Shown piece by piece: positions 13,074-34,436 of a stretch of 64,000 bases of DNA. This stretch comes from Syntrophales bacterium. Lineage in GTDB: Bacteria > Desulfobacterota > Syntrophia > Syntrophales > UBA2210. Both the position numbers and the translations under genes were made by a program. The stretch spans positions 544,001 through 608,000 of the forward strand of contig CAXXKT010000001.1 of the NCBI GenBank assembly GCA_963662405.2. Direction: 5' to 3'. Position 1 is the first letter of the stretch, and every line of letters begins with the position of its first letter. The notes beneath the pieces were generated by a model. That model saw only the letters and a program-made list of their open reading frames with translations, ran no database searches and was not told the DNA's origin.

Positions 13074-14553
13074 GATAAACGCTCCTTGGTGAATCAAAGG
13101 TGATATAGAGAGATAGTCATAGGTTAACGTGGCATTTATAACATGCGTTATCTGATATTCTCAATGATATACACGGAAAAAACGCCGCTTTCTGGCCCCC
13201 TGCGGACTCGCGCATCAGGATTCCTTGCCATATCTGTACGGGACCACAGACGGACCGTGCTCTGACCCACCGGCAGGCTTCTCCTCGCCGTGGTGACGGA
13301 TCACAATGGCATTCGATGGATCACAGCCCCGGCAGCGCATCCAGCATCATGTTATCCGACGCGGCATTGACCTGAAGCGCGGCCAGGGCCCGGTCCGATA
13401 CGTAGCCGATATAGGTGGCCCCGGTAATATCTCCCGCAAAGATATCGACCGGTGCCCCGGAGCGCTTCGCATACGCACCCAGATCGATCTCTTCCGTGGC
13501 GATTACGTCACCGGCATCGTTGTACGCCGTCAGGGTCACCGTCGCCGCAGCGCCCTCTGTGTTCGCAAAGGCAATCTCCGTCGTACCGTCCCGCTCCAGC
13601 TTGGAGAAAACACCCGCCGTCCCGGTGATGCCGACGCAGCTGCAGCCGGCCAGACGGTTCGTACCCTGCGCCAGAAGTTCGAGACCCGTGATCTCGGCCG
13701 TCGACTCTATCTTCAGCCAGGCCGTCTCCGGAGAGACGAGGGCCGATACCAAACCAATATAGTGCGCCCCACCGGTAATCTCCACGTCATCATCTGGCGG
13801 GGGAAGGGCCACACCCGCCGCCGTATACGGAGAAATGGTGAGGTCACATGTCGTCTCCGACGGATTGTAGGCCACAATACCCGTCCCCCAGTCGCCCCCG
13901 TTCCGGGTATGCGGATAGTACATGGTCGTGGCGGTCCTGTCCTTCAGCAGGATACCGCTCATCTGGTACCCCACACCGTTGGTGAAGATCTCCAGTCCGA
14001 TCACCCCGTCCGCATCACGGATCACGGCCGAGTTGATCCCCGGCTGGTACTGACCGCCAAAGAGGGACCTGACCAGGACCGCCTTGTGCTCATGGGCCGC
14101 CAGATCCACATCACGGGTCTGCCCGTTGTCGAACTCGATCGTCACGGTCTTGGCCGACGCGGTCGTATTGAGAAGACTGATCCCGGTCCCCCACCCTCTG
14201 GCTTCATCGGACGCAATATGGGTGACGTAGATGTCTCCGGCGTTGATCTCGGATACGGCGGGAATCGCAGCTCGATAGTACCCCTCCCGGTAGAACTTCG
14301 TGTACCCCACCACGTCCTCGCTATCGGACTCGAAGACGATGTAGCCGATCTCCTCCGAATCGCTAAAATCGTCACACACGGCGATCTCCCTCCGGCCGTG
14401 GGGGGCAAGGGCGACATCGTCGATCTCGGAGACCAGCACCCCCGCGTCGCTGTACCCACGGAAGACACCATTGACTGTCTCGGTTGCGCTGGTGTTGATC
14501 GCGCAGATCTCCGTCCCCCAGACCCCTGTACATGCAATGTGGGGATAGTAGAG
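11783..14553. repeat. ~1.2-kb high-identity direct repeat (about 11783-12995 and 13336-14553) shared by the BACON protein and the S8 protease C-terminus
   Basis: Long identical stretches at DNA and protein level, e.g. GYTKFYREGYYR...EIFTNGVGYQMSGILLKDRTATTMYYPHTRN...MMLDALP. Confidence 0.9.
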
Positions 14554-17292
14554 CGTTGCTTCCGCGCCCTCCCCCGCCATCCCCCCGCTCACCACCAGGG
14601 CGAAGGGCTGCGGCCCCTGGGGCACGCTGTACCCGCTCACCCGGATGGTGTATGCCCCCGTTGCCGGGGTCGCCAGGGTCAGACCGACGACGTTGTTCGT
14701 CCGGTCGAAGGACGAATCATACTGGACATCGGCCCGTATCGCCGCGGTATATGAGTCGACCTCCCATACGGAGTCGTTGTGCGAGTAGCTCCTCCCCGTG
14801 GGGTTGCCATTCTGATTGAGATAGATGCCCTGGGTTACGTCATCCTCTTCTACTGCGACATAGAAATCACCGCTCGCCACGGTCACCCCCGTGATGGCCG
14901 TGGTGTTCCACCCCGACGGGACGGAGGCCATGGTCGTCCGGAAGAGTTCCGTCCCGGGGAGCCCCCCCGTCCCGTCGTCGTCATAGACAACGATGTCGAC
15001 CGCCGAAGGACTGGAAGAGGGATTATAGAAACGGAACACGGCCGCCGTCACCTGGGCGGGGTACGACTCGGGGGTAAAACGCACCGCCCAGCTCGACTCA
15101 GATCCATAATACCCGAAGCTGCCGCTTTCGTAGGCGATGGTGTCGTCCAGCGTAACCCCATCCGGGTAATGGACCGTCGCCGCCGGGTCCGTCACCCGGA
15201 GGTCCAGGTCATTGACCAGTCCCCCGTCGGCCGCGGGGGAGCCGGGGTAATCCGTCCAGACCAGGTTCACCTTGAACGGATATCCGGCATCCGAGACGGT
15301 GACCGGATATTCGGTATACTCCCCGGTCTCCAGCCCCCCCTGTTCATCATAGTACAGGATATGAAACGGGGGGACCGGAAAGACCCCCCCCCGCGAGATT
15401 CAGCCTCCCCCACCCCTCGACGTTGTTCGGGACGGGGGAGTCGGGGATCTCCTGGGCCGAACCGGTCCCGTACTGACCGGGGGAGATGTCCTCGGCGCTG
15501 TTCAGGAGGGCGGCCTTGATCAGGGCCGCCGAGGGCGGGGAAAACCCCTTCTCCTCCATCAGGTACTCCCGCATCAGGGCGGCCGCCCCCGCCGCCAGGG
15601 GGGTGGCCATGCTGGTCCCCCCGTTGTACAGGTAATAGCTGTTATACGCCCCCCACCCCGGCCTCCCGAAGTTGTCGGGAAAGGTTGCAACCGACGAGCG
15701 GGTGGAGAGGATCCACGTCCCCGGGGCCACGATATCGGGCTTGTACCTGCCGTCGAGACAGGGGCCGCGCGCGCTGAAGGCGACCATGCCACCGGGATCA
15801 TCGGCGAGACGGTCGGACGCGATGGGCTCGGCGGGATAGTCGTCAGGCCAGCTCGTCCCCCAGGTGGAGGAAAAGGAGGACCGGTCCCCCCTCCGACGCC
15901 CCCACGGTGAGACAGTTCTTCGCCGTCGCGGGGGAGCCGATACTGGAAAGATCGACCACGCCGTCTCCGTCCGCATCGGCCCCGTCGTTCCCCGCCGAAA
16001 AGAGGATCAGGAAATCCTTGTGGTCCCACATATACTCGTCGACGGTCTGCGAATCCGAATCATACCGGCCGTATGCCACGCTCCCCCAGCTGTTGGTGTG
16101 CAGGTCGGCCCCCGCCCCCTGCGCCTCGGCGAAGAGGGGGGGTGAGAACCCATGGAATGCCCTCCAATTTCTTCGAGGTGTTGTTCTCGACGGCCTGAAA
16201 GACGAGGCGGGCCTTGGGGGCCATCCCGGCGAAACAGGTGGCGGGGAAGCTGTCCACGGAGGGATCGCTCCCCGATTCACGGCCGTTTCCCAGGACGGAA
16301 CCGGCGACATGGGTCCCGTGTCCGGAATTGACGTCATCGGCACCGTCCCCGTACCCGACACAGTCGATAATCGTGGTCACCCGCGTCCCCCCCGAGCCGT
16401 CTTCAAAGTCGTCGTGAAGGGAGCCGGGATCGGCCGAGCCCCGATCGAGGCCCGTGTCGCAGACACCCACCGTCTGCCCCTCGCCGTAGAGGCCGTGGGT
16501 GTCACGGGGGGTCCTGACCCCCATGAGGTCCGTCGATCTGTCGTTGTGGAGCCTCCGCTCGGGCCACGGCTCGACCCACCGGACCCCGGTGATGCCGGGG
16601 AGATCTCCCACCCGGTCTCTCGGAACCGTCACCTTCAGGGAGGTCCGCCATTGTGTGGACATCTCTTCCGTAACGGTGCCACCCAGCGCGGTAATCTCCG
16701 AGCTGATCCGGTCAAGGTCCTCACCGGGGAAGACCGAGGCACGGAGGACCACGGAGGCATCTCCGTCCCCCCGTGAAGACACCGTGCGCGCCCTATCCAG
16801 ACAACGGCGATCGATCCGGTACGAGGGCTGGAAGATCCCCACCCAGCGGACGTGCGGGAGGGCGCGGACAGCCTCTTCCTTTCCCGGATCCAGACGCACG
16901 ATAAAGGCGTACCGGGGAATGTAATCGAAGATATCACCCGCTTCACTGAGCCCTTCCTTCCAGGCGGCCTGCACGGGACCGTCGAACTGGACAATGTAGT
17001 ACCCGGTCTCTCCCTCCCCGTACGACTCGATCTTCCTGACGGTCTCCTCCTGCGGCGGGCTCTCACCGAGCGGGTCGAAGGGGGTACGCCCCAGTCGCAG
17101 CTCAAAAGGTTTATGATTCTTTACCTGATTTCGGACCGATTCCTGGGGAGTCTTCGCGGCGGCTATCGTCTCATCTATCGCCATGATCCGTTCGATCTCC
17201 CCCGCACGGGAGGGAACGACAGGGCAGCAAAGGGCAAAAAAGAGGGCCGGGAAAAGGCACCGGCCCATCACTCTGATTGCCTTTCGTTTCAT
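13321..17292 (-). CDS. S8 (subtilisin-like) serine peptidase, ~1320 aa when reconstructed, interrupted by three +1 frameshifts; C-terminal four repeat modules
   Basis: Signal peptide and YIVQF propeptide; triad VCDTG / HGTHVAG / GGTSMATP spread over ORFs 16060-17370, 15843-16361, 15347-15976, 13321-15270; frame changes at homopolymers G7 16136-16142, C6 15886-15891, C9 15384-15392. Confidence 0.85.
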
Positions 17293-17379
17293 GAAATTCG
17301 TTGCCTTCCGTATCGTCTTATACCGGTCTTCAGTGTCTAGCAGGTGGAGAAACGCCCATGGGAAACGCACTCCACGCCG

Positions 17380-20507: not shown

Positions 20508-21557
20508 TTACCGGCACGTCTCACCACCCCAACGGCGCGGTACGATATTCCGGCTCGTCAACTCCTCAGCGAGGGCCCGGGTGAAGGGGGGGGCATCACG
20601 CCGGTCCAGATGCGACCCCTCGGGACACGTAATACCCTCAATCCCCTCGATATCCCTGAAATGGATGGTGCAGGCTCCCGTCAGATCGGCGATACGATCC
20701 CAGTACTCCTTCCGGGGGTAGAAGCGTTCATCAATCTCCCAGTGTTCGCCGCTCGAAGGCAAACGGACAAAGACAACTCTTCCCCCGCGACGGGTAATCG
20801 TCTCCACAAAAGGTCTGATCTCTGCGGCATTCCCGCGCCACTCCTCAGGAGGAAGCGGAGGCTCCTGGGAGTAGATCTCTCGGATCCGCTTGATCCGATA
20901 GGCATAATGTTTCTTGATGTTCGTCATCGTATAATCCGCGCGCCGTGATCGATCGTGCCGGGTTACCAGATAGCGAGGCTGCGGAAGTCTGCCCGTTTTA
21001 TCATATGATTCGATCAGCCGTTCCACCTTCAGATAGGGATCGATAACCACGAGGCGGTTCTGGATGGCGGAGGACACCCAGCGGTTCAGGCGCGTATTGG
21101 GGGTTGAAACCGTGTGGTAATAGGCCACATAATCTTCCTGATCCTCCCGGAACTGCCGCTGAAATCCCATAGCGGTGATGGAACAGAGAACAACACCGGA
21201 GAACTTCGTATTGTTCGCCAGATCACGCAGGGCGGCGATCGGATGCTTTCCGTTAACCGCGAGCTGAATGATCTCCCGGCAGGGAAAGACCTCACGGAGC
21301 ACATCCAGAGAAAGATCAAGCTGGATACGCGAGGCCCCGAGCAGTACGATGGCCTCCTTTCCTGCCTTCTCAACCCTCGAACGATGGACAGACCACAGCT
21401 CCGGATCGTCCACCACGGTCGGCTTATGTCCCTGCGCACGCCAGAAGATCTCCATACCTCCCAGTACCAAAGCAACCAGAAGGAATGCCGCGAGCCACAC
21501 CCGTGGCCATCGATCGGCGTAAGACTGATGATTAGAACTGGAAATAGATGAAGGCAC
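20508..21557 (-). CDS. SGNH/DltD-like periplasmic acyltransferase partner of the MBOAT
   Basis: N-terminal TM, LLGASR (Ser block), C-terminal EGSHL; overlaps the MBOAT stop. Confidence 0.65.
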   Translation of the reverse strand: MPSSISSSNHQSYADRWPRVWLAAFLLVALVLGGMEIFWRAQGHKPTVVDDPELWSVHRSRVEKAGKEAIVLLGASRIQLDLSLDVLREVFPCREIIQLAVNGKHPIAALRDLANNTKFSGVVLCSITAMGFQRQFREDQEDYVAYYHTVSTPNTRLNRWVSSAIQNRLVVIDPYLKVERLIESYDKTGRLPQPRYLVTRHDRSRRADYTMTNIKKHYAYRIKRIREIYSQEPPLPPEEWRGNAAEIRPFVETITRRGGRVVFVRLPSSGEHWEIDERFYPRKEYWDRIADLTGACTIHFRDIEGIEGITCPEGSHLDRRDAPPFTRALAEELTSRNIVPRRWGGETCR

Positions 21558-22956
21558 GGTCCTCTCCCGATAGTATGACGATACCGATCAACATGCCGGC
21601 CAGCGCCAGTGATCTCAGCCAGCACGGCATTGAATATGCGATTTCTTCAAGCGTGCGGTTTCGCCCGCACCACTGCAGTGCGAATAGAATGGATGCAACA
21701 CCGGCCGTCATGATGACATCCCGTGACCCCAGCATCAGTGTGGCCGGCTCACCTCCCAACCCGAACATGGCCCGTACCATCATGCAGGCCTCCGCGAGGG
21801 TATCGGCCCGGAAAAAGACCCACGCGACACAGACAAGGGCGGCGGTAAAAAGGGCCAGGACGACCTTGAGCGGCATCCTGCTCCAGACGCGGGAAGCGGG
21901 TATGATCCTCCTGAGCAGCCGCTCCCCAAGGAGATAGAGGCCATGCACCCCCCCCCACAGCACAAAGGTCCACGACGCGCCGTGCCACAGCCCTCCGATC
22001 AGCATCGTCAGCATCGTATTGACCTGCGTCCTCAGCCCGCCCCGGCGGTTGCCGCCGAGGGGTATGTACAGGTAATCGCGGAGCCACGTTGAGAGAGAAA
22101 TGTGCCACCGCCGCCAGAAGTCGGAAAAGCCGGTCGCCGCATAGGGGGCATTGAAGTTGTCGGGGAGGTGAAATCCGAGGCAGATCGCCACACCGACGGC
22201 ACAGGTTGAATATCCCGCGAAGTCACAGAATATCTGCCCGGCGAAGGCGACCGTCGCGCACCATGAACTCACCATGTCCGGCACCCCGCTCCCGTCATAG
22301 ACCGCCTCCGCCACCGGGGCGAGGAGACCGTCGGCCAGTGCCACCTTTTCAAAGAGGCCCAGGGTCACGAGGACCAGTCCCCAGGCCATGTCACGCCCCG
22401 TTACCGTCGGCTCCTTCAGGCACTGGGGGAGGAAATGGAAGGCGCGGACGATGGGACCGGCCACAAGCTGCGGGAAAAAGGCGACATAGAGGGCGTAGTC
22501 CAGGAAGGAATGCCACGGGCGGCCCGTCCCCCGGTAGATGTCGATGGTGTACGAGAGGGTCTGGAAGGTGTAAAAGGATATGCCGAGGGGAATAATCAGG
22601 TCCGGCCGCGGCGGTTGATACGCGATATGGAGCCAGTGCATCAGGATCGTGAAGTTTTCGATCAGGAATCCCGCATACTTGAAATAGCAGAGCAGCCCCA
22701 GGTTGACGGCGAGGCTGAGGAAGAGAAAAATCCTGCGGGTTCTTATGCTTTTTGATTCGTGGATGCGCCGGGCGGCGATCCAGTCCGCCACCGTGGATAT
22801 CCACAGGAGGATGACGAACGGGGGGTTCCACGCGGCATAAAAGAGGTAACTGGCAGCGAGGAGCCCCGCCTTCTTCACCCCCCACCGCAGGGGGAAACGC
22901 GTGAAGGCGATGACGACGGCAAAGAATACGATAAAGGTATACGAGTTGAACAGCAC
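21532..22956 (-). CDS. MBOAT family O-acyltransferase (AlgI/PatA-like)
   Basis: MLFNS start, PLGISFYTFQ, FFPQLVAGPI, DFAGYS, FWRRWHISLSTWLRDYLYIPLGG, GLWHGA, FIYFQF end. Confidence 0.95.
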   Translation of the reverse strand: MLFNSYTFIVFFAVVIAFTRFPLRWGVKKAGLLAASYLFYAAWNPPFVILLWISTVADWIAARRIHESKSIRTRRIFLFLSLAVNLGLLCYFKYAGFLIENFTILMHWLHIAYQPPRPDLIIPLGISFYTFQTLSYTIDIYRGTGRPWHSFLDYALYVAFFPQLVAGPIVRAFHFLPQCLKEPTVTGRDMAWGLVLVTLGLFEKVALADGLLAPVAEAVYDGSGVPDMVSSWCATVAFAGQIFCDFAGYSTCAVGVAICLGFHLPDNFNAPYAATGFSDFWRRWHISLSTWLRDYLYIPLGGNRRGGLRTQVNTMLTMLIGGLWHGASWTFVLWGGVHGLYLLGERLLRRIIPASRVWSRMPLKVVLALFTAALVCVAWVFFRADTLAEACMMVRAMFGLGGEPATLMLGSRDVIMTAGVASILFALQWCGRNRTLEEIAYSMPCWLRSLALAGMLIGIVILSGEDRAFIYFQF

Positions 22957-23099
22957 GGGAAAGGTGAGGCCTCCGTACCACGAATCGGATTGTTATTCCG
23001 GCGGAAGCCGGCACGATGCTCCCCCGCTATTATCGCGGCAGGGCCGACTCTCCCGAAAGGGGGAACCGACCCTGGGCGAAGAGAATCGATATGGCGCCG

Positions 23100-23651
23100 T
23101 TACCCTTTGTCCGGGGTAAAGGTGCCATCCATCTTGAGCGTGCCTTGTTCCTTTCTGCCGTCGGGGTACGTGAGCGTCCCCACCGCGAAGCGCTTGATCC
23201 ACCGATATTCGGCCGGTGCCTTTATGCCGGTCTGCGCGGGAGCTTGCCCCTTTGTAACGTGGATCTCCTTCTTCCACTCTCCGGTAAATATCCTCCCGTC
23301 CCAGAAGGCCATGGTTCCCTGTCCTTCCCAAGCACCCTTCTTGAACTCCCCATCATACTGCTTTAACGGTTGGCCCTCGGGATACGTCAGGATCCCCCGG
23401 CCATCGGGTTTACCCTTCTGCCAGGACCCGGTATACGTATCACCGCCCGCCCCAATCATCATCCCCTGGCCTTCCGGCACACCATCCTTGAACTGCCCCG
23501 TATATTTCTTGAAGTTTTTATGGCCGGGATAGGTCATCACCCCTTCCCCGTTGAGGCAATCCCCCTGTATGCATTCGGACAGGACCGCTCCAGGATACCC
23601 GATAAGCAGCGCCGCCAGAACGGCGCACATCCACACTCGTTTCATTTTCAT
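23100..23651 (-). CDS. Secreted MORN-repeat protein
   Basis: Signal peptide, CIQGDCLNGEG, repeated Y.G.(F/W)K.G...G.G motifs; GGAGG RBS (start 23651 or 23645). Confidence 0.85.
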   Translation of the reverse strand: MKMKRVWMCAVLAALLIGYPGAVLSECIQGDCLNGEGVMTYPGHKNFKKYTGQFKDGVPEGQGMMIGAGGDTYTGSWQKGKPDGRGILTYPEGQPLKQYDGEFKKGAWEGQGTMAFWDGRIFTGEWKKEIHVTKGQAPAQTGIKAPAEYRWIKRFAVGTLTYPDGRKEQGTLKMDGTFTPDKG

Positions 23652-23723
23652 TCCTCCCTGATTAAAGAACTCTCCGCACACCGGATTGGGCTCCGGGACA
23701 CCGGCGAGGCTGCTCGAACCGCT

Positions 23724-24140
23724 CTATTGCTTCATCCCGGGGATCCCCAGGGGCGCCAGCTTCAGGCGCCAGCCGTCATCTTGCAGCAGCCACGTTTCCT
23801 TGAAGGTAAAGGGGAATACCATCCCCATATGCGATGCCTTGCACGTAACGTTCGCCACGGCTTCTTTCCCCGATTCCAGCATGGTAATCTCTGTGATCGA
23901 AAACTCCGATATATCGAGATTTGCCCCCCGTAAGAAAGCCTGGAGGGATACCTTCTCGCGGTATTCGGCCACCGTCAGATTATAGACGATGTCCCAGTTC
24001 TTGCTGACCTTGGCGTTCCACGCCTGTGTCACTCTCTGCCTCAGGGCCTCCTCACTTCCCGGATCCCTCAGGAGGTGAGCACATCCTCCCAACATGACAG
24101 ACAGCGAAATCAGAATAACCATCACCCTGAATCGATTCAT
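23724..24140 (-). CDS. Putative lipoprotein (NTF2-like fold possible)
   Basis: Lipobox LGGC after a hydrophobic stretch; ATGA overlap with the upstream gene; ETWLLQDDGWRL terminus. Confidence 0.75.
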   Translation of the reverse strand: MNRFRVMVILISLSVMLGGCAHLLRDPGSEEALRQRVTQAWNAKVSKNWDIVYNLTVAEYREKVSLQAFLRGANLDISEFSITEITMLESGKEAVANVTCKASHMGMVFPFTFKETWLLQDDGWRLKLAPLGIPGMKQ

Positions 24141-25195
24141 TGTTTCTCACCTCCGGACGCGGATTGTTTCTTGAGCAATTCCATATATTCTGCCGGAGAC
24201 AATTTGTGAAGTTCCTTGATATTCCTCATCTGTTCCTTTTCCCTCTTCTCTTCAAGCTTATCTTTCATGTCCTTACCGGTTATGGCAACGATCTTTTCAT
24301 CATCAGGGATCGAACCATCCAGAGGGATCATCCGGCTCCGGCTGACGGCGGCCTTTCCGTCCGCGTCGAGATTGAGGCGGGTATATCCGACTTGCTCCCC
24401 CCTATAGCTTGACTTGATGAAGGGCTCGTTGCTCGCGGCTTGCGCCATCTTCTTTCCGCAGCCCCCGCGCCTGTCTTTGTCCCCGGAACAAATGCTGAGA
24501 TCGATGCCGTCTAAGTCTTTAACCAGCAGGCGCGTCTTCTCCAGGTCATACTGGGAGAGCAGAACGATGACATCGGTCTGCTCCCGCAGCCCCGGCAGCA
24601 CCGCCGTGATGGCCGTCTTGGGATCAACGATCTCGAGACCTGCAACCAGGCCTTTGTCGCTGATATGGTCGAACGCACCGAGGGGGAGGATGGAAAGCAC
24701 GCCGACCCTGACATCTCCCGCCTTGACGACTGCGTATCCGTTACCGAAGGGCTGCATCCCGTCCCGGCGGACGAGATTCGTCGTAACGAAGCTGATACCG
24801 ACCTCCGACGCGGTCTTCGTCAAAAACTCGGCCCCGAGGGAGAAATCAACCCCTCCGAGACCATGTGCGTCATACCCCATGGTGTCCATCGCTTCGACGC
24901 CGATCTTCGCCACCAGTTCGCGATCCCATGCGCCGTCCCGATCCCGGGCGGACTCGGGGGGCATAAAACCGCCGCTATCCAGCAGGATCACTGGCGCCTC
25001 TTCGCTTCGAACCGAATCAATCACCGTTTTCGCTCGGGCCAGACCGCCCGAGGTACGGCCGCCTCACCCACGCCTCGGGGTCAGCTGCCCGACCAGATCG
25101 CCGGTGAACAGCACCGTAACTCCCTCATGCGCCAAGGCTCCCTCCGGCAGGGCCAGGCACAAAGCACACAGGACAAACAGGATCCATCTTTTCAC
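24137..25195 (-). CDS. UshA-like (metallophosphoesterase fold) secreted selenoprotein; Sec at UGA 25066-25064
   Basis: Frame continues upstream through one TGA to a signal peptide (GTG 25195, or ATG 25213): ..EGALA|HEGVTVLFTGDLVGQLTPRRG-U-GGRTSGGLARAKTVIDSVR..LLDSGG; SECIS hairpin 11 nt after the UGA. Confidence 0.82.
25033..25052 (-). promoter_or_regulatory. Bacterial SECIS element
   Basis: mRNA UGA-GGCGGCCGUAC(11 nt)-CUCGGGC-GGUCUG-GCCCGAG: 7-bp stem and G-first loop, resembling the E. coli fdhF SECIS apex. Confidence 0.78.
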
Positions 25196-25308
25196 GATAT
25201 CTTCTACCTCCATGGGTTCTTGTTTTGGGAAGATCTACGGGAAGATCCCCTCCCGTTTTACAACACATTAAACCAGATTTCCTCTATACCGCATCAGAAT
25301 TTCGCCCG

Positions 25309-25644
25309 TCAGTATTTACAGGGTGCGGCCATCGCAAGTCGTTCAAGATCCCCTTTGACGGTCTCGTCATCCGCCAGGTTGTTGCGAAAACATGCCTGGA
25401 GACATGCCTCCAGGTGGTGTCGGGGCTCTACCAGTCGGTAATGTCTCCACGTACCATCACGCCGAACTTCGACCATCCCCGCCGCGCGCATAATCCCAAG
25501 GTGGCGGGAGATTTTGAATTCCGGCTCGTGGAGCGCCTCTCCCAGCTGGCAGACACATTTCTCCCCCTGGATGGAAAGCAGGACCGCCAGTCTGAACCGG
25601 GTCGGATCGGCAAGGGCCTTGAAAATGGCTATTTCATCGTGCAT
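25309..25644 (-). CDS. ArsR/SmtB family metalloregulator
   Basis: FKALADPTRFRL, EKCVCQL (CxC box as in ArsR ELCVCDL), ISRHLGIMRAAG, RRDGTWRHYRL. Confidence 0.93.
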   Translation of the reverse strand: MHDEIAIFKALADPTRFRLAVLLSIQGEKCVCQLGEALHEPEFKISRHLGIMRAAGMVEVRRDGTWRHYRLVEPRHHLEACLQACFRNNLADDETVKGDLERLAMAAPCKY

Positions 25645-25661
25645 GTCAGGGTTCCCCTCCT

Positions 25662-25716
25662 ATCTACGAATATGCACATTAACGCAGATTAAACATGCCC
25701 GACACAACCCTGTCAA
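25662..25716 (-). promoter_or_regulatory. Sigma70 promoter and overlapping imperfect palindrome (candidate ArsR operator)
   Basis: TTGACA (25716-25711)-N17-TTTAAT (25693-25688); palindrome ATCTACG-AATATGCACATT-AA-CGCAGAT at 25662-25689. Confidence 0.6.
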
Positions 25717-25885
25717 GAACAATATTGATCGGGGAAGAACATTACCCCCGAGTCGGAGAGCATTCGGAGCGGTACCGTTGGTATCCCCGATAGGCCTTCT
25801 CATCCGCCGTCTCAGAAAAATCTTGCCGATGGACAATCAGGCACCTCGATCCTGCGCCGTGGCCGGGAACCGTCGGCGGGCATGG

Positions 25886-28303
25886 TCACCGTATGACATC
25901 CCCCATCAATTTGTGGCTATCTACCGACGTCTGGAGATAGACGCCGCTGATAAAACCGTCATCAAGAGATTCGATTTTCGCGTATCCGAAGCGTTCGTCC
26001 ACGCCGAAAAGGCTTCTGATCGTCCCGCACACCTTTCGGTTCGGAGCCATATCCTCCCAGTCCCGCGTAAGGAGAAGATCTCCATCCGGGCTGAAGACTG
26101 AGCACCGGACGGTCGTCTCCGTGACTCCGGCATTAGTGAAACAGATTCCCGTCCCCCAAGACGTCTGATCGGGAATATGCGGGACATATCCGATTGAGGC
26201 GGACGCCCCCCTGATCGGCACCCCGGCCAGCTGCCATCCGCTGCTTGACGCGTACAACAGCCAGCCGCACAGGGGCTGATCGGCATGGGACACGATCCGG
26301 ATCGAAGCGATCTCCTGGGGGGAAACAAATGGGAAAAACGTGGTCGGTGTTCCGACCACATGCTGCCGTGCCTTGATGGTTCTCGTCGATTCATCCAGGA
26401 GATTCCCATCCGCGTCATATCCGTAAAAGGTGACAAGCGATGAGAACCGCCCGGCATTCGCGACGACGATACCCGTCTGCCAGTTCCGGTTCGAAGCGAC
26501 GTGCGGGACCACCAGCTCGGAGGTCCGCTCCGGATCCAGGGGGATAAGGCTCTTCAGGGAAAGTGAGACAGAAACATCTTCATACAGTTTCACATACCCG
26601 ATCAGCGAAGCGGCCCCGCCCTCAACCGTGGCGCTCATGGTCCGCGCCTCCTCGGATCTGAGGATCCCGACGGCGCCGGGCCGGTCCTCCGTTTTCTGAC
26701 CAGGATCGAGGACGACCGTATCCGTGCCGAGCGGCTCCCCCTGATCGTCATAGGCTTGGCGGGTAACGGTCACCGCCTGGTCGCCGACATTGATCATGCC
26801 GAGGTATGTCGTCCAGAATCCATACGCCAGTTGGGGGTAAAAGAGTTCCGCGGCGGCATCCCCACCCGGCAGGAGGTTGCACCCCATGAGGTCCCAGCTC
26901 CCGTAGGTCACCTCCTGCAGCCCCCAGAGCGGCTCATCCGCATCCACGCGGAGATATCCCTTGTCCGGGAGCGTCAGTCCGAAGTCATCCTCAACGGTCC
27001 CGGACAGCTGGCCGTAGAGATCCGACACGGAAAAGCTCTCCCCCAGCGGCAGTCCTTCCCGGTCCATCTGCGAGACGATGATCCTCCCCGACTCCGTTTC
27101 AGGGCTGAGGAGGGCAATGCCGTTGACCCATGACCCCGAAGGATCGAGTGGGAACAGCCCCTGCCAGCCGAGGATGTGCATTACATACAACTCGTAGGTT
27201 ACATCGGATCCGGTCGTCGGTACCAGTTGCAGGTAACAGGGCCCTTCCTCGCCGGCCTCGATAACGGTAGTGGCGCCGTCACTTTCGAAATGCAGCTCAT
27301 CCCCCATGGGGTATACCGTCAGGTCCATCCCCCCGGAGTCGGCGAAACCGGTGATCTCCACACGATCTCCCGCTTTCAGATCGATCGAGAACCAGTCGTC
27401 GGTGACCCCCAGGAGGGACGCGTAGTGGCCGCTCGATATCTCGGCGGCCGTTTCCTGTGACGTGTTGCCGGCAAAGGCATCATCCTCCGCCGCCGCGATC
27501 AATCTCACCTCCTCAACAGCAATCCCCGGGTTCAGGCAGCCGGGGCCCAGGACCTCCCAGGCCCCCTGCGGAGGCGCGATCCCCTCCCCCCAGCCGCTGT
27601 CCGCGATCTCGTCTCCATCCATCCGAAACCAGTACTCGTACGTCTTCTGGAGCACACGGGTCCCCACATAATCGGGACCGACGCCGTCGTTTGCGTAGTA
27701 TATCGTGGTGGTAAAGGTGATAACAGTCCCCACGGTCGTACTCTCGACATCGAACTGGTACACGGGGTAATTCCAGTGCTCCGGCGATATTCCCAGGTCC
27801 ATGATAACCGGCATCCCGCGATCCCCGATATAATCGTGCAGGACCCCGTGGAACCCGGCGGGGCTGTCGACGCCGAACCCGCCGCTGCTTGCCTCGACAT
27901 AATCGGCCTCGGTATAGGCCACGGTCAGGAGCCCCTTTTTGTCCCCCACATGAAATATAACCCCTCCGTAGAGGCCCGGACAAGTCGGTTCCGGTTCCAT
28001 GATGGACGCGGCGGCCCAGTTCCAGCAGTGCCCCCACCAACCTTCAGCGTCGTCGCTGTAATAGTACGACTCCCCGTAAGCGGTCGCCGGCCCGTCATAC
28101 CTCCCGCTGGTCACATAATCGTATTTTTGCAGGGGGGCCGGGGTCCCACGGTAGCCGTAGACGAGTTCCCCCCGCGAGGTCGGCCACCACCACCCGGACC
28201 ACGGTATGGTGTCCGCGGTATAGGTCTCACACAGACCGCCTGCCGCCATGGCGCACCACAGCATGACCATCAGACAAATCCCCGGTACTCTCCGTGCGCT
28301 CAT
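25886..28303 (-). CDS. Secreted protein: transglutaminase-elicitor-like N-domain + PPC-like domain + four repeat modules
   Basis: WSGWWWP, WWGHCWNWAAASIMEPEP, GDKKGLL, WNYPVY; DDWFSIDLKAGD (PPC-like); modules such as LVVPHVASNRNWQTGIVVAN; TGATG coupling to the upstream gene. Confidence 0.7.
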   Translation of the reverse strand: MSARRVPGICLMVMLWCAMAAGGLCETYTADTIPWSGWWWPTSRGELVYGYRGTPAPLQKYDYVTSGRYDGPATAYGESYYYSDDAEGWWGHCWNWAAASIMEPEPTCPGLYGGVIFHVGDKKGLLTVAYTEADYVEASSGGFGVDSPAGFHGVLHDYIGDRGMPVIMDLGISPEHWNYPVYQFDVESTTVGTVITFTTTIYYANDGVGPDYVGTRVLQKTYEYWFRMDGDEIADSGWGEGIAPPQGAWEVLGPGCLNPGIAVEEVRLIAAAEDDAFAGNTSQETAAEISSGHYASLLGVTDDWFSIDLKAGDRVEITGFADSGGMDLTVYPMGDELHFESDGATTVIEAGEEGPCYLQLVPTTGSDVTYELYVMHILGWQGLFPLDPSGSWVNGIALLSPETESGRIIVSQMDREGLPLGESFSVSDLYGQLSGTVEDDFGLTLPDKGYLRVDADEPLWGLQEVTYGSWDLMGCNLLPGGDAAAELFYPQLAYGFWTTYLGMINVGDQAVTVTRQAYDDQGEPLGTDTVVLDPGQKTEDRPGAVGILRSEEARTMSATVEGGAASLIGYVKLYEDVSVSLSLKSLIPLDPERTSELVVPHVASNRNWQTGIVVANAGRFSSLVTFYGYDADGNLLDESTRTIKARQHVVGTPTTFFPFVSPQEIASIRIVSHADQPLCGWLLYASSSGWQLAGVPIRGASASIGYVPHIPDQTSWGTGICFTNAGVTETTVRCSVFSPDGDLLLTRDWEDMAPNRKVCGTIRSLFGVDERFGYAKIESLDDGFISGVYLQTSVDSHKLMGDVIR

Positions 28304-29007
28304 CACTCCCTCACCAGCCAATATCTCAGGTGACCGTTCTCCCCACAGATCGGCCACGGCGCCGTTTCATCCCAGTACTGGACGAACGAAACCTCTCCGT
28401 TCCGCGTACACCTGATCTCAATCAGATTATCCCCCGCCACAGACGGGCAGAGTTCAACCTCACCGGAATACCGTTTCGCATCCTGCCGCAGGGTAACAGT
28501 TTTGACAAACCCGCCGCCGATCGAGCGCTTCGCCTGATACTGCCCCGACGAGGGGAGCTCGACCGGGAAAAGGGGGGCGTCGAAGGGAATAGACGATCGT
28601 TCGGTGGATACGGGCACGGCGGTATCGAAGGCCAGTTTCGCCACCACCTGTTCATTGCTTCGCCGAACCTCGACCGCAGCGAGGGAGCGGTCGGCGCACC
28701 GAAACCACAGACGGGCCCCGGGTCCGTTATTCCCGGAAACCGAGGTGACATCCACGACGTACACCGGCTCATCCGCCCTCGTTTCCATGCCGTCCACCCG
28801 GTATACCCAGACAACCGGTGCCGACCAGCCGTCCGCGACGGCGGGCAGCCGTTGGACGACCTTGACGGACCAGCTGTCTCCCACCCGCCAATCGGGGTGA
28901 AATGATTCCGCTCCCGATACCGTATAACTGCCGAAGAGGAGGATGGAAGCCATGAGGCATGCTCCCACCAACCCGTTCATCGCCCTTTTCCGTGTGACCT
29001 TTCCCAT
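28303..29007 (-). CDS. Secreted hypothetical protein
   Basis: Signal-like GLVGACLMASILLFGSYTVSGA followed by PDWRVGDSWSV; translationally coupled to the next gene; start uncertain (29007 or 28980). Confidence 0.65.
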   Translation of the reverse strand: MGKVTRKRAMNGLVGACLMASILLFGSYTVSGAESFHPDWRVGDSWSVKVVQRLPAVADGWSAPVVWVYRVDGMETRADEPVYVVDVTSVSGNNGPGARLWFRCADRSLAAVEVRRSNEQVVAKLAFDTAVPVSTERSSIPFDAPLFPVELPSSGQYQAKRSIGGGFVKTVTLRQDAKRYSGEVELCPSVAGDNLIEIRCTRNGEVSFVQYWDETAPWPICGENGHLRYWLVRE

Positions 29008-29200
29008 TGCGTGTCTCTTCGTCGTATCGTATCTCTCGCCCGGGGACATGTGTATCCTTTCCGCCGTTTCGACAGCCGGGAGAAAATGTACGTGATGATT
29101 GCCCCTGAAACGGGTATCAGACGGTGCCGAAGGGCCGGGGTATGGCACCACTACAGCCTTTACCCGGTCGGCAACCGGCCTTTTCGTTATTCTCAGATCG

Positions 29201-29241
29201 AAAAAAAAGGGTGATACGGACACCGTCCGTCCGTATCACCC
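29201..29241 (-). terminator. Rho-independent terminator after the candidate S-layer gene
   Basis: 13-bp perfect stem GGGTGATACGGAC/GTCCGTATCACCC, 7-nt loop, then T8 on the minus strand. Confidence 0.88.
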
Positions 29242-29299: not shown

Positions 29300-30478
29300 T
29301 TAGTCTAAGTCTCTCTGGCAGGGGCTGTTGCAGTCGGCCGCGTAGGTGCCGCCCGCGTAGTTCCCGTTGGAGAGGAACATATACCCATTGATCATGAAGT
29401 TGGCAGTCGCCTTCAGATAGGCACGACCCGCCGCCGGGACACCGCTGAACTCGGCCAGGATCGCGTCGAGGCTGAAGGTCCAGACATACTCATCACTCGC
29501 GAAGTCATCCTTCGTGTAGGTGAACTCGGTACCGGTCGCATCGACAAGCGTGAAGACCACTTCCATGTCACCGTACGCCACGGCGGCCGGATTCATATTG
29601 ATCAGGGTGATACCCGTGACCCACGGACTGCTCTGGGTCAGGACGTAGGGGAAGAGCACACAGCACTCATCCGGCTCCGTCACTGTTTCCGGGCAGTAGA
29701 TGCCGAGGTCGACGGTGCACTCGCAGACCACCGCGCAATCATCGCAGATGGTGCCCGGATTTTCGGCGGACAGCAGCTCGATCTTCACCAGAACGCTGGC
29801 GCCACGTACCGCATCGTCCTCATCGTACTTCATGGCGGGCATATCGATCCACCACCAGCAGAAGGCATCGTCAATGTCGGCCTCCTGGAGCAGATAGCCA
29901 TCTCCGCATTCCGTCTCTTTGACGAGGGGCTTGTAGAGAGGATCGCAGTCGTTATCCTTCGGAGCCGGAAAAGTGTCATACGTACGGGCACGGTCCGACC
30001 AGTAATTGTAGTCGGTGCCGAAGGTCCGGATGTTCCCCGTCGCTGCCATTGTCGCGGCGGCGCAGGCGTCCGTGGAATTCTCATAGGTGGTGAAGAAGAT
30101 CTCATCAGCCGTGAAATAGAACCCGTCCGTGAGGGACGTCATGCGGATCCCGATCGTGTTGCCCGATACAAAGGCGCTCACGTCTTCGCAGCAGCAGATG
30201 TCGAAGAGCACCTTGCAGCCTTCGTTATCCGTCGAATAGCCGATGGCACCGCTCGCGACGGCGGTCGCATCCAGGGCCGAACTGGTGTCATCATAGTCGA
30301 AGAAATAGGCCTGGCAGACCCCTGCCGCGTTGACGGCGGTCGAACTCACCGGGCAATCAATGGTGCCGATATTGCACTTGCCGCAGTCTTCGCAGCATGC
30401 CTGATGCGCGGCGGCGGGCATTGCAAACGCGAAGACCATCGCCATCGCGGCAAATAATACTAAAGCTTTTTTCATCAT
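29300..30478 (-). CDS. Acidic, Cys-rich secreted protein; candidate S-layer/major surface protein
   Basis: AGGAGG RBS, signal peptide MKKALVLFAAMAMVFAFAMPAAA, about 23 Cys, D/E/T-rich, C-terminal module VLFPYVLTQSSPWVTGITLIN, long upstream non-coding region, own terminator. Confidence 0.7.
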   Translation of the reverse strand: MMKKALVLFAAMAMVFAFAMPAAAHQACCEDCGKCNIGTIDCPVSSTAVNAAGVCQAYFFDYDDTSSALDATAVASGAIGYSTDNEGCKVLFDICCCEDVSAFVSGNTIGIRMTSLTDGFYFTADEIFFTTYENSTDACAAATMAATGNIRTFGTDYNYWSDRARTYDTFPAPKDNDCDPLYKPLVKETECGDGYLLQEADIDDAFCWWWIDMPAMKYDEDDAVRGASVLVKIELLSAENPGTICDDCAVVCECTVDLGIYCPETVTEPDECCVLFPYVLTQSSPWVTGITLINMNPAAVAYGDMEVVFTLVDATGTEFTYTKDDFASDEYVWTFSLDAILAEFSGVPAAGRAYLKATANFMINGYMFLSNGNYAGGTYAADCNSPCQRDLD

Positions 30479-30732: not shown

Positions 30733-32193
30733 TCATTCCGTCGCGCCCTCTTCTCCGCCACCGTCATCCATCGGCGGGACCCGCAGGAAAACCGATACAG
30801 AGCTCTCCGTGATCTCCACGGCTTCACTCACCCGGGCATCTCCCCACTCGCAGGAAATCCGATAGGCACCGGGAGGCAGGGCCGTGGAAAACCCTCCCGA
30901 CTCGCCGGTATAGACAACGCCGGAGAAGGTCTCCCCTTCTATTCCGACCGCGAGGCCTCCGAGCCCTTCCGACCGGTCATAGAGCAGGTCGCCGTTCCGG
31001 TCTTCGTACGCCACGCCCACAAGCCGGGGGACAGATTCATCCGCGCCCGCGGGGGCGGCGAAATCCGCTACCATGAAGAGGATATGATCGCTGCAGATCG
31101 TCGCAAGCGGCTCCGATTCACCGGCGATAAGACCGACGCCGACGTCCCGCAGATCCGGGTTCAGTATGGCGCGATCGGCCCCTTCCTCCAACTCGCAGAG
31201 GAACAGATCGTATAGAAGCCCCTGCGCTCTGTCGAGGGGAAGCTCTTCATCGGGGCGGTAATAGGACATGCCGAGCGACTCCCCCGCCACCTCAGGATCG
31301 TACCCCGCCTCGGCGATGCGGTCTCGGAAGGTCTCCCCCTCGGGAGAGTCGTGGGAAAAGTAGCCCTCTTCCAGCATGTCGCCGGCGTGAACCGCCGCCG
31401 CCGCGTAGAGCAGGAGGTCAACCGTCAGCGGAGGTAACCCATTCGTCAGGATATCAGTCAGCTCCGGACGGTCCGCGAGGACCTGGTCCGGGTCCATACC
31501 GAGGGAAGAGATTACATCAAGGGGCCGGTAGCGGGCCTGGTTGATCAGATGTACGATCTCCATCGACACCGTTTCCACGCTCCGGCCGAAATCACAGGTC
31601 GCCAGGTAGACGTTATACAGGGCCTTGCCCCATTGCATGGTGCCCGCTCCCAGGGCGATCCCCACCTGCGTCAATTCAGGGCTCAAGATATACATCGTCT
31701 CGCCGCTCGCCGGATCCAGCTGGTCGCGAAACATGGTTTCGAAGATGGTGCGCACCCTCTCGGCGGGATCGACAAAATTCGAAAAGGCAACCAGCCCCAG
31801 AGATTCGCCGCTTGCCAACGGGAGATATCCGGCATCCCGGATGCGATCCTCGTACGTCCGGCCATCGGCGGAATCGTGAGCGTAATACCCCTCCGCCAGC
31901 ATCTCTTCCGTGTGCGCACGGGCCGCCTCATACAAATTGCGATCAAAGGTCAACGGGGGAAGCCCCTCCGTCAGGGCCGTTTCCATCTCCGGAAAATCCC
32001 GGATGATCCGTTCAGGATCCATCCCCATCTCCCGCGCCGTCTCAAGCGGATTTGCCCGCGCCTCGTTGATCATATCGAGAAACGCGACCTCGTACCCGGC
32101 AAGGGCACCCTCCGCCGCCGGGGCACCGGCACAAAAACCGAGCCCGATCATTAGCGCGATCACCGTTGTTGTTATGGTATGGAGTATCTTCAT
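30733..32193 (-). CDS. Secreted tandem CAP/SCP-domain protein with C-terminal SdrD-B/carboxypeptidase-regulatory-like domain
   Basis: Two copies of IN.AR..P...PPLT.D..LY.AA..H..(E/D)ML.EGY(Y/F).HDS..G.T..DRI..AGY; GVAYEDRNGD tail. Confidence 0.85.
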   Translation of the reverse strand: MKILHTITTTVIALMIGLGFCAGAPAAEGALAGYEVAFLDMINEARANPLETAREMGMDPERIIRDFPEMETALTEGLPPLTFDRNLYEAARAHTEEMLAEGYYAHDSADGRTYEDRIRDAGYLPLASGESLGLVAFSNFVDPAERVRTIFETMFRDQLDPASGETMYILSPELTQVGIALGAGTMQWGKALYNVYLATCDFGRSVETVSMEIVHLINQARYRPLDVISSLGMDPDQVLADRPELTDILTNGLPPLTVDLLLYAAAAVHAGDMLEEGYFSHDSPEGETFRDRIAEAGYDPEVAGESLGMSYYRPDEELPLDRAQGLLYDLFLCELEEGADRAILNPDLRDVGVGLIAGESEPLATICSDHILFMVADFAAPAGADESVPRLVGVAYEDRNGDLLYDRSEGLGGLAVGIEGETFSGVVYTGESGGFSTALPPGAYRISCEWGDARVSEAVEITESSVSVFLRVPPMDDGGGEEGATE

Positions 32194-32504: not shown

Positions 32505-34436
32505 TCAGCGGCCACGCATCACCTCTCTATAATATGAGGTGTTCCTGATATTCTCCAGTTCGGGATCGGTCCGTATCAGGTCCCAATTGTCATATCCCTC
32601 CTCGACGGCCCTTCTGAGCGCCCCGACCGCTTCTTCCTTCTTCCCCTGCAGCGCATAGGCACAGGCAATGTTATAGGAGGCGACGGGGGCATAATGAGCG
32701 TCCAGCCGCCTTGCCGCCGCGTAATGGCCGACGGCCTCTTCATGTCTCCCCTGCCTGAGCAGCCCCCCCCCGAGCCTGAAGTGGGCCTGCGCGTAACCGG
32801 GGTCGATACGGACGGCTTCGGCATACTCCCTGACGGCCTCCGCCAGCTCTCCCCGCTTGTCGAGGACAAAGGCCAGGTTGTGATGCGCCACGGCCATATC
32901 GGGTTTGAGGCGCAGTGCTTCGCGATATTGTGCGATGGCCTGCTTCGCATCCCCCTGTTCCGCCAGGGCAGTCCCCAGGTTGATGAGCGCCTCCGGATAG
33001 ACCGGCTTGATTCGCAACGCCTCGCGGTACCGGTCGATGGCCTCTTCCTTCTTCCCCTGCAGTGCCAGGGCGTTCCCCAGGTTGACGAGCGCCTCCGGAT
33101 ACGCCGGCCGGATACGCAATGCCTCACGGTACTGCGCCGCGGCCTGTTGCGTGTCGCCCCGTTCATGGAGGGCCGTCCCCAGGTTATTGTGCGCCAAGGA
33201 GTTAGCCGTCGTCACATCGAGGGCGTGCCGGAAGAGGGAGATGTTGTCCTTCCAGTACCCCGCCTGCACCCACGTCACCGCCATCAGAACCGCCAGGACC
33301 GACGAGCCCGCAACGGCAAGCCCACAACGGGGGAGTCGCCAACGGGAAAAAAACGCCGGGATACCCCACGAAATCATCACGAAGATACCGACCAGCGGCA
33401 GGTACGTGTACCGGTCGGCCATCGACTGGCTCCCCACCTGTACCAGACCGATCACCGGAACCAGCGTCCCCAGGTACCACAACCACCCCACCGCCAGGTA
33501 CGGATGTCTCTTTATCGCCCTGATCACCAGATATGATATGACCACGAGAAGAACGCCGGCCATGAGACCCTGCACGAGGGAAACCGCCCGCGGATACGGA
33601 TAGAAAACCGCCAGCTTGTACGGCCAGATCGTCTTCACCAGGTAGCTTATATAGGAAAGCAGGGCATTGGCCGCACGTGCATCCAGGGGAATCGCATCCA
33701 GGGAACTGACCGCCCCGCCGCCACGCTGGACGAAAAAGGTCACGACGCTCGACGCCCCGGAGAGGAGAAGGAGCGGAATCTTCTCCCACACCAGACGAAA
33801 CCACTGACCCCTGACGCCTTCCCGCCGGAGACGCCCCAGGGGCCATATGTCCAGCAGCAGGAGAACAAAGGGCAGCGTCACCACCATCGGCTTGGACATC
33901 AGACCCAGGGCAAAAAAGAGTACAACCGGCAGATACCTGCCGATACCCGGACGCCGCGTATACCGGACGTAGGACCACATCGTCAGGAGCCAGAAAAAGG
34001 CGCTCAGGACATCCTTCCGCTCCGCCACCCATGCCACCGACTCCACGTGCAGAGGGTGAAACGCGAAGAGGGCCGCCACAAAGGCGCTGGACCACAGATC
34101 ACCCGTCATCATCCGGAAAACCGCAAACAGGAGAAGGGTGTTGAAAATATGAAAAAGCAGACTGGTCAGGTGGTGCGCACCCGGATGCAGACCGAACAGG
34201 TGGCAGTCCGCCATGTGGGAAAGCCACGTCAGGGGATGCCAGTTGGCCGCGGCCGTGGCGGTGAAGGCGCGGGAGATGTTCTCCATGGTGATTCCCCCCT
34301 GCACCCACTGATTCCGGGTGACGTAATCGCCGTCATCATAGTAGAGAAATCCGTGATTCCACACCTGCCCGTACACGGCGAGGATACCGATCACCAGCGC
34401 GAGACAGATGGATATTGCCAACCGACGGGGGGACAT
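32505..34436 (-). CDS. TMTC-like GT-C membrane protein with C-terminal TPR array (copy A)
   Basis: YYDD loop, NWHPLTWLSH, HPLHVESVAWVAERKDVL, MSKPMVVTLP, ADRYTYLP, ~5 TPRs and YNIACAY...IRTDPEL end domain. Confidence 0.88.
   Translation of the reverse strand: MSPRRLAISICLALVIGILAVYGQVWNHGFLYYDDGDYVTRNQWVQGGITMENISRAFTATAAANWHPLTWLSHMADCHLFGLHPGAHHLTSLLFHIFNTLLLFAVFRMMTGDLWSSAFVAALFAFHPLHVESVAWVAERKDVLSAFFWLLTMWSYVRYTRRPGIGRYLPVVLFFALGLMSKPMVVTLPFVLLLLDIWPLGRLRREGVRGQWFRLVWEKIPLLLLSGASSVVTFFVQRGGGAVSSLDAIPLDARAANALLSYISYLVKTIWPYKLAVFYPYPRAVSLVQGLMAGVLLVVISYLVIRAIKRHPYLAVGWLWYLGTLVPVIGLVQVGSQSMADRYTYLPLVGIFVMISWGIPAFFSRWRLPRCGLAVAGSSVLAVLMAVTWVQAGYWKDNISLFRHALDVTTANSLAHNNLGTALHERGDTQQAAAQYREALRIRPAYPEALVNLGNALALQGKKEEAIDRYREALRIKPVYPEALINLGTALAEQGDAKQAIAQYREALRLKPDMAVAHHNLAFVLDKRGELAEAVREYAEAVRIDPGYAQAHFRLGGGLLRQGRHEEAVGHYAAARRLDAHYAPVASYNIACAYALQGKKEEAVGALRRAVEEGYDNWDLIRTDPELENIRNTSYYREVMRGR
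33211..34245. repeat. Third near-identical copy (~1035 bp) of the TMTC-like membrane domain (matches 43007-44041 and 45051-46085)
   Basis: Identical protein and shadow-ORF translations; one substitution spotted at 33255 vs 43051. Confidence 0.9.

Follow-up and report, generated by a model that had tools for sequence, protein, structure and literature searches.

A conserved in-frame UGA hides a predicted secreted selenoprotein whose phosphatase-like scaffold keeps few of the metal ligands

In the window, that is, the whole stretch of 64,000 nucleotides that was analysed, an ORF of 295 aa (24137-25024, minus strand) has a 5′ extension that crosses a single TGA (25066-25064) and takes in the stretch VLFTGDLVG and an N-terminus resembling a signal peptide. 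The locus raises the question of whether this TGA is decoded as selenocysteine (Sec), and what a Sec may do on a scaffold of the UshA type. The features of the locus are collected in table 1.

Table 1. Predicted selenoprotein gene, its elements and its neighbors (positions in the window)
Feature	Positions	Strand	Remarks
UshA-like selenoprotein gene (predicted)	24137..25213	-	358 aa via TGA read-through; 352 aa from GTG 25195
Parts of the selenoprotein	24137..25213	-	signal peptide, degenerate metallophosphoesterase domain, helical LSPxEY tail
In-frame TGA	25064..25066	-	predicted Sec50, context PRRG-U-GG
Bacterial SECIS hairpin (predicted)	25033..25052	-	overlaps the S-G-G-L-A-R codons
Cys242	24488-24490	-	
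Cys252	24458..24460	-	candidate resolving Cys, on a loop inserted behind degenerate motif V
Predicted lipoprotein	23724..24140	-	138 aa; NTF2/DUF4440-like (lead); ATGA overlap with the selenoprotein gene
MORN protein, MBOAT acyltransferase, 349-aa partner	20508..23681	-	downstream
ArsR/SmtB regulator	25309..25644	-	CVC motif; between the TGase-like and selenoprotein genes
Secreted 823-aa protein	25886..28357	-	TGase_elicitor domain (WxGxC); repeated C-terminal beta domains
Conserved secreted hypothetical protein	28303..29223	-	cassette member; ~250 aa from ATG 29049
Terminator	29209..29241	-	strong; 14-bp stem and T-run, directly after the S-layer candidate
392-aa secreted protein	29300..30478	-	acidic (pI 4.1), 23 Cys, all-beta; S-layer candidate
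Two-CAP-domain protein	30733..32193	-	cassette member
PMT_2 + TPR predicted protein glycosyltransferase	32505..34436	-	adjoins the cassette

Decoding of the in-frame TGA

A sequence-only reading of this DNA had placed the TGA within one frame that starts with a signal peptide and the first strand of the fold. The frame is indeed continuous, and the 358-aa read-through product carries U50 within TPRRG-U-GGRTSGGLAR. Two starts are candidates, ATG 25213 and GTG 25195; the latter, with GGAGGT 10 nt upstream, is the more likely one. Regarding an error at the codon, one contig over 23700-26000 and another over 25020-26000 show 0 differences each to the window, both from two runs of a single sample that is possibly the source of the DNA itself.

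The hairpin CUCGGGC-GGUCUG-GCCCGAG has a 7-bp stem and its first nucleotide lies exactly 11 nt past the UGA, as had been claimed. The same 11-nt spacing and a GGUCUG-containing apex are presumably found in fdhF of E. coli. The folding energy is -21.1 kcal/mol (z = -1.79), with equally stable folds in 11 of 200 shuffles. Taken alone, the hairpin is thus weak, and the case for it draws its strength from conservation. The bacterial SECIS model, as given in the available part of PMC13188914, has a loop of 3-9 nt with a G, a stem of 4-16 bp, a spacing of 16-37 nt and an MFE <= -7.5; the hairpin lies within all these ranges (6-nt loop starting with GG, 7 bp, 18 nt from UGA to loop, -21.1). When the genome was scanned for open frames in which a TGA is followed by a GGTCT[G/T] hairpin with 5 bp or more, two matches emerged, this gene and a second one which is not a recognisable gene frame.

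Protein searches covered 38 family and 339 class genomes, and 37 homologs were kept once the true nucleotidases, two incomplete rows and a single row interrupted by a stop had been dropped. At the column of U50, where the earlier reading had proposed to look for Cys or Sec, 31 of the 37 have TGA and six have Cys. A hairpin with at least five stacked pairs is conserved in 28 of the 31 TGA homologs versus two of the six Cys homologs, and no hairpin pair is left in the Cys paralog that this genome itself carries (C3:212773, TIRCC). Pair 4 varies on both sides (G-C 89, U-A 4 and C-G 2, of 100), and two of the counted changes turn GGLAR into GGLAG. The GGTCT[G/T] loop is absent from all eight true nucleotidase controls. 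The close database relatives, nine out of nine, are N-truncated (275-295 aa). A related-locus search with the selenoprotein sequence alone as query found no relatives.

The genome contains selA, selB and selD above cut-off and a tRNA-Sec (selC), so all four genes for which a search had been suggested are present; selB was also detected in the five relatives tested (5/5). The selD gene (G000:C3:552135-553065; L003, place 1942) carries its own Sec TGA and one frameshift. The latter looks like an assembly error of one extra base, since this base is absent from the contigs of three out of four runs. In G025, a genome with two selB matches, a Cys-only copy (L046:4300-7400) immediately follows selD-like and selB genes.

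The gene almost certainly encodes a selenoprotein. A true stop (in a pseudogene or a split gene) or an error could draw on the modest stand-alone z-score and on the overlap of the hairpin with conserved GGLAR codons, but it is hardly credible against a TGA kept at one column with Cys in the remaining homologs, a covarying hairpin, the Sec machinery, the agreeing contigs and the absence of the loop from the nucleotidase controls.

Scaffold, family membership and second cysteines

The structure model (pLDDT 90) matches the N-domain of 5′-nucleotidase (TM 0.73, E 2e-22), in line with the UshA-like fold that had been proposed. It ends in two helices after this domain, with no C-terminal substrate-binding domain, and the TM by target is about 0.5. 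The dimetal ligand motifs of the 5′-nucleotidase UshA are presumably DxH, DxGD, GNH, H and HxH. At these positions D39 is the sole ligand kept, and V41, G82, G121, V122 and Q221 are replacements. The degeneracy, already read from the motifs, holds across the 55 rows of the clade described below; D79 is kept in 54 of them. Since the fold matches the N-domain only and the ligands are lost over 55 rows, the selenoprotein is not a phosphatase or nucleotidase.

The best NCBIfam match is NF041198, UshA_like_PCGU, with 133.6 bits (E 7.6e-39), under the cut-off of 275 bits. NF049981, UshA-like family 2, reaches 46.2 bits versus a cut-off of 140 and covers residues 32-119 only. Among 42 aligned relatives the best E-values are 2e-68 and 3.7e-27, respectively. 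Judged by these profiles, the predicted selenoprotein belongs to neither curated family. It has in common with UshA_like_PCGU (COG0737) the scaffold and a Sec in the loop before GGLAR, but it lacks the CxU and the CxxCH tail (18 CxU rows carry four CxxCH), and has the LSPxEY tail and a lipoprotein/surface cassette instead. UshA-like family 2 is also a short form with the same Sec site, whereas its CxxU is missing here. Similarly, the N-terminal metallophosphoesterase fold is shared with UshA/CD73, but not the metal ligands and the C-terminal substrate domain.

The site itself is RRG-U, without the partner Cys of CxU or CxxU, as had been stated. In their available portions, PMC2398784, PMC9312934 and PMC13188914 give UshA-like selenoproteins as CxU, and the forms reviewed there are solely CxU and CxxU. 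Two DNA-pattern scans provided at least 142 profile-positive loci out of at least 204 bearing the pattern; at least 137 complete rows were pooled, of which at least 106 remained after 90% de-duplication. The selenoprotein is placed in a clade of at least 55 rows (98/82), in which the heme tail is absent and the named records are largely from Syntrophales and Desulfobacterales. Among the matches listed, the clade consists of 37 lone-Sec, 12 CxxU, one CxU and five Cys-only rows, proportions which are biased since 69 of the 106 rows derive from patterns demanding TGA and SECIS. Only one lone-Sec row among the matches listed is found outside this clade, and among the protein-search rows 11 out of 37 have a lone Sec. 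A lone Sec without nearby Cys is the commonest state of the whole clade and not a one-off.

A look-alike of the Sec site, RRGGCG, had been noticed later in the chain. The motif is there and contains Cys252, but its likeness to RRG-U is coincidental, since each of the two varies independently in homologs; an internal repeat of RRGU and RRGGC is ruled out on the same ground. The loop of Cys252 is modelled at pLDDT <50. In the UshA structure, the loops of motif I and motif V are presumably neighbors. The loop Cys is matched by pattern in eight out of nine close relatives, with a shifted Cys in the ninth. In the 14-row subclade which holds the selenoprotein (bootstrap 92, unstarred), 11 rows have the loop Cys and three a Cys in another insertion. 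Three proteins (L041, L163 and L221) have no Cys other than that of the loop.

A distal loop Cys in every lone-Sec protein was considered and rejected: it is present in nine of 11 members of the first set and in 20 of the 37 lone-Sec clade members after expansion, being absent from the loop in 17. Four of these 37 lack Cys at all five sites that were scored, and two of the 12 CxxU rows also carry a loop Cys. An independent-pairs test lent no support (median p 1). Close to the former active site, a second Cys appears repeatedly, as CxxU, UxxC, CC or in the loop. A pairing of Sec50 with C252 is plausible; C252 has a rival partner in C242, and these two could simply pair together.

Other forms also occur in the family. 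For instance, UxxC variants (U-G-K-C; L051, L052) are found in the outer clade, beside rhodanese and MauE genes. A distant short UshA-like Sec group (L097, L139, L166, L169, L217 and L243) always has just upstream a gene of ~91 aa, which is taken to be IHF/HU-like. In Armatimonadota-labelled and metagenome records, CxU forms that bear four heme motifs (CxxCH; L129, L134, L211 and others) share the GGLAR-embedded SECIS.

Coupled lipoprotein gene and putative surface cassette

The strongest functional clue, overlooked in the sequence-only reading, is a conserved cassette with lipoprotein, transglutaminase-like and S-layer-like genes. Among the matches listed, 40 of the 55 clade loci and none of the 51 loci outside the clade have the lipoprotein gene immediately downstream (at least 500 nt of downstream DNA at 52 and 49 loci, respectively), and within the clade the coupling spans several orders. 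In the reverse test, with a phylum sample of 401 genomes, the selenoprotein gene is upstream in all four of the strongest lipoprotein matches with upstream DNA. The weaker matches of this sample have no selenoprotein gene upstream, and in two an S-layer-like gene is found instead. In G700 and G603, both with selA, an S-layer-like gene is located beside a relative of the lipoprotein, and no clade gene adjoins them.

Several copies depart from this arrangement. The Cys-only paralog (TIRCC) of the genome (G000:C3:212773-213831; L036), with a decayed SECIS, is without the lipoprotein gene. A remnant (G000:C3:48656-49292; L324, L349) consists of the C-terminal tail of the selenoprotein and a copy of the lipoprotein interrupted by a TAG. 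The three CC forms acquired a vicinal Cys; two of them retain the lipoprotein but sit apart from the cassette.

The cassette is composed of the CAP protein, the 392-aa protein, the ~250-aa protein and the TGase-like protein, and is positioned upstream or convergent downstream of the clade gene. Of the 339 class genomes, 13 contain a TGase_elicitor domain; a clade gene is present in 12 of these, and in the thirteenth the 3′ end of a clade gene is at a contig edge. Conversely, 14 of the 339 have a clade-level match (E < 1e-30) and 12 of these have the domain; these counts are not independent, since the genomes are kin. In G319 the cassette is without a clade gene, and its clade-gene copies are elsewhere in the genome. 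The lipoprotein coupling of the selenoprotein gene and its co-occurrence with the TGase-like and 23-Cys S-layer-like cassette are new here.

The 823-aa protein matches PF16683 with 49.8 bits (cut-off 25). A catalytic Cys-His pair is presumably to be expected for this domain, as in GP42; WxGxC is found in the 14 listed homologs, with a His right after the Cys in one. Its C-terminal repeats resemble the last domain (TM1070/ASRT-like) of the 392-aa protein, and are perhaps a surface-targeting module.

In the case of the 392-aa protein, the Cys count is at the 99.7th percentile, many of the Cys are conserved and the structure model is all-beta. Its profile matched nine clade loci and none outside among the matches listed, most loci being too short to reach the gene. 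A homolog of this protein is annotated in Desulfonema limicola. There was no Pfam match, PF19526 (Slr4) included, and the fold searches gave no S-layer structure; the C-domain matches TM1070/ASRT (Z 11.0, rmsd 3.0, 101 aligned), with weak pilin/adhesin Ig matches. The Atlas feature score is 0.93 to clusters with Slr4 in 12-20% of their members, a sub-threshold recognition. As a putative S-layer protein it is a lead only. With Slr4 (PF19526), carried by its nearest Atlas clusters, it has in common being secreted and beta-rich; according to the available part of PMC7821379, Slr4 adjoins a type II secretion cluster, whereas the 23-Cys gene adjoins CAP and TGase genes.

Farther downstream, a subtilase (Peptidase_S8; 15347-17370, minus strand) is divided over two ORFs, possibly by another assembly indel, and cassette-type beta domains follow at 13321-15270. 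An 8-bp inverted repeat (25395-25414) lies within the ArsR gene. ArsR and MBOAT were ruled out as core partners, being near only two and four of the 55 clade loci, respectively. The outer-clade neighbors include thioredoxin, CcdA, rhodanese, MauE and metalloid-transporter genes. In the genome, CcdA/DsbD_TM is matched once, and DsbB and VKOR gave no match.

What the selenocysteine may do

The likeliest of the readings, at slightly less than an even chance, is that of an exported protein for selenol/disulfide exchange which has the lipoprotein as its partner and serves the Cys-rich proteins of the cassette. SelB would insert Sec50, and after export the coupled lipoprotein would keep the product close to the membrane, perhaps via the helical LSPxEY tail of the latter. 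The selenolate would attack disulfides or oxidised Cys, either in the 23-Cys surface protein or at the transglutaminase nucleophile. The mixed Se-S bond may be resolved by the flexible-loop Cys252 in the 14-row subclade, and by the substrate or a CcdA-fed thioredoxin in members without a loop Cys. DsbC and DsbG are periplasmic isomerases/reductases with CxxC. The job proposed here would be alike, but the fold is unrelated and Sec takes the place of CxxC.

A general envelope antioxidant or reductase, acting on peroxide, sulfenic acid or persulfide and captured into the surface locus with no dedicated client, fits the rhodanese, MauE/DoxX, thioredoxin and CcdA genes beside outer-clade relatives, as well as the copies away from the cassette (the three CC forms included) and the cassette without a clade gene. 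It seems unlikely, as the lipoprotein coupling over several orders (40 of 55 loci, matches listed) and the near-complete co-occurrence with the TGase domain in the 339 genomes speak against it. It is quite improbable that Sec is a covalent nucleophile of acyl or phospho transfer in surface modification, or that it joins the protein to the lipoprotein or the surface layer by a structural Se-S bond: MBOAT is rarely at the clade loci, and the repeated gain of a second Cys and the CC of Cys-only copies suit redox chemistry better, even if the lone Sec is on the old hydrolase active-site face, D79 is nearly invariant and MBOAT, glycosyltransferase and Wzm/Wzt genes are nearby. Finally, it is very doubtful that Sec binds a soft metal or a metalloid (As, Hg, Cd, Cu) in the emptied metal pocket, with the protein acting as a sensor or scavenger. 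The ArsR gene directly upstream and, in the outer clade, an SBF-family (ACR3-like) transporter, an ArsP permease and a cation-efflux gene point that way, but ArsR is seldom near clade loci and the transporter genes are mainly with the outer clade.

The exchange reading can be carried further, to a dedicated selenium catalyst derived from a dead phosphatase. Anchored by the lipoprotein, it would build a disulfide-rich, transglutaminase-modified S-layer in anaerobes of the Syntrophales/Desulfobacterales type without DsbB/VKOR, and its resolving Cys would have changed place repeatedly round the former metal pocket (CxxU, UxxC, CC, motif-V loop, C-terminal insertion). In this full form the proposal is rather unlikely.

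UshA-like selenoproteins have been catalogued since 2008, with the motif given and no function in the available portions of PMC2398784, PMC9312934 and PMC13188914. A literature search, with supplements outside its scope, found no paper on the lone-Sec motif or on a link of a selenoprotein to the surface layer; Haft & Gwadz 2023 and Haft & Tolstoy 2025 may bear on novelty. Genes of the clade are N-truncated in databases and have been overlooked by both curated models. With a partner lipoprotein and Cys-rich candidate surface clients, the clade offers a testable setting for UshA-like selenoproteins. If the proposed function is true, selenium would be tied to cell-surface assembly and disulfide handling in anaerobes without the standard oxidation route.
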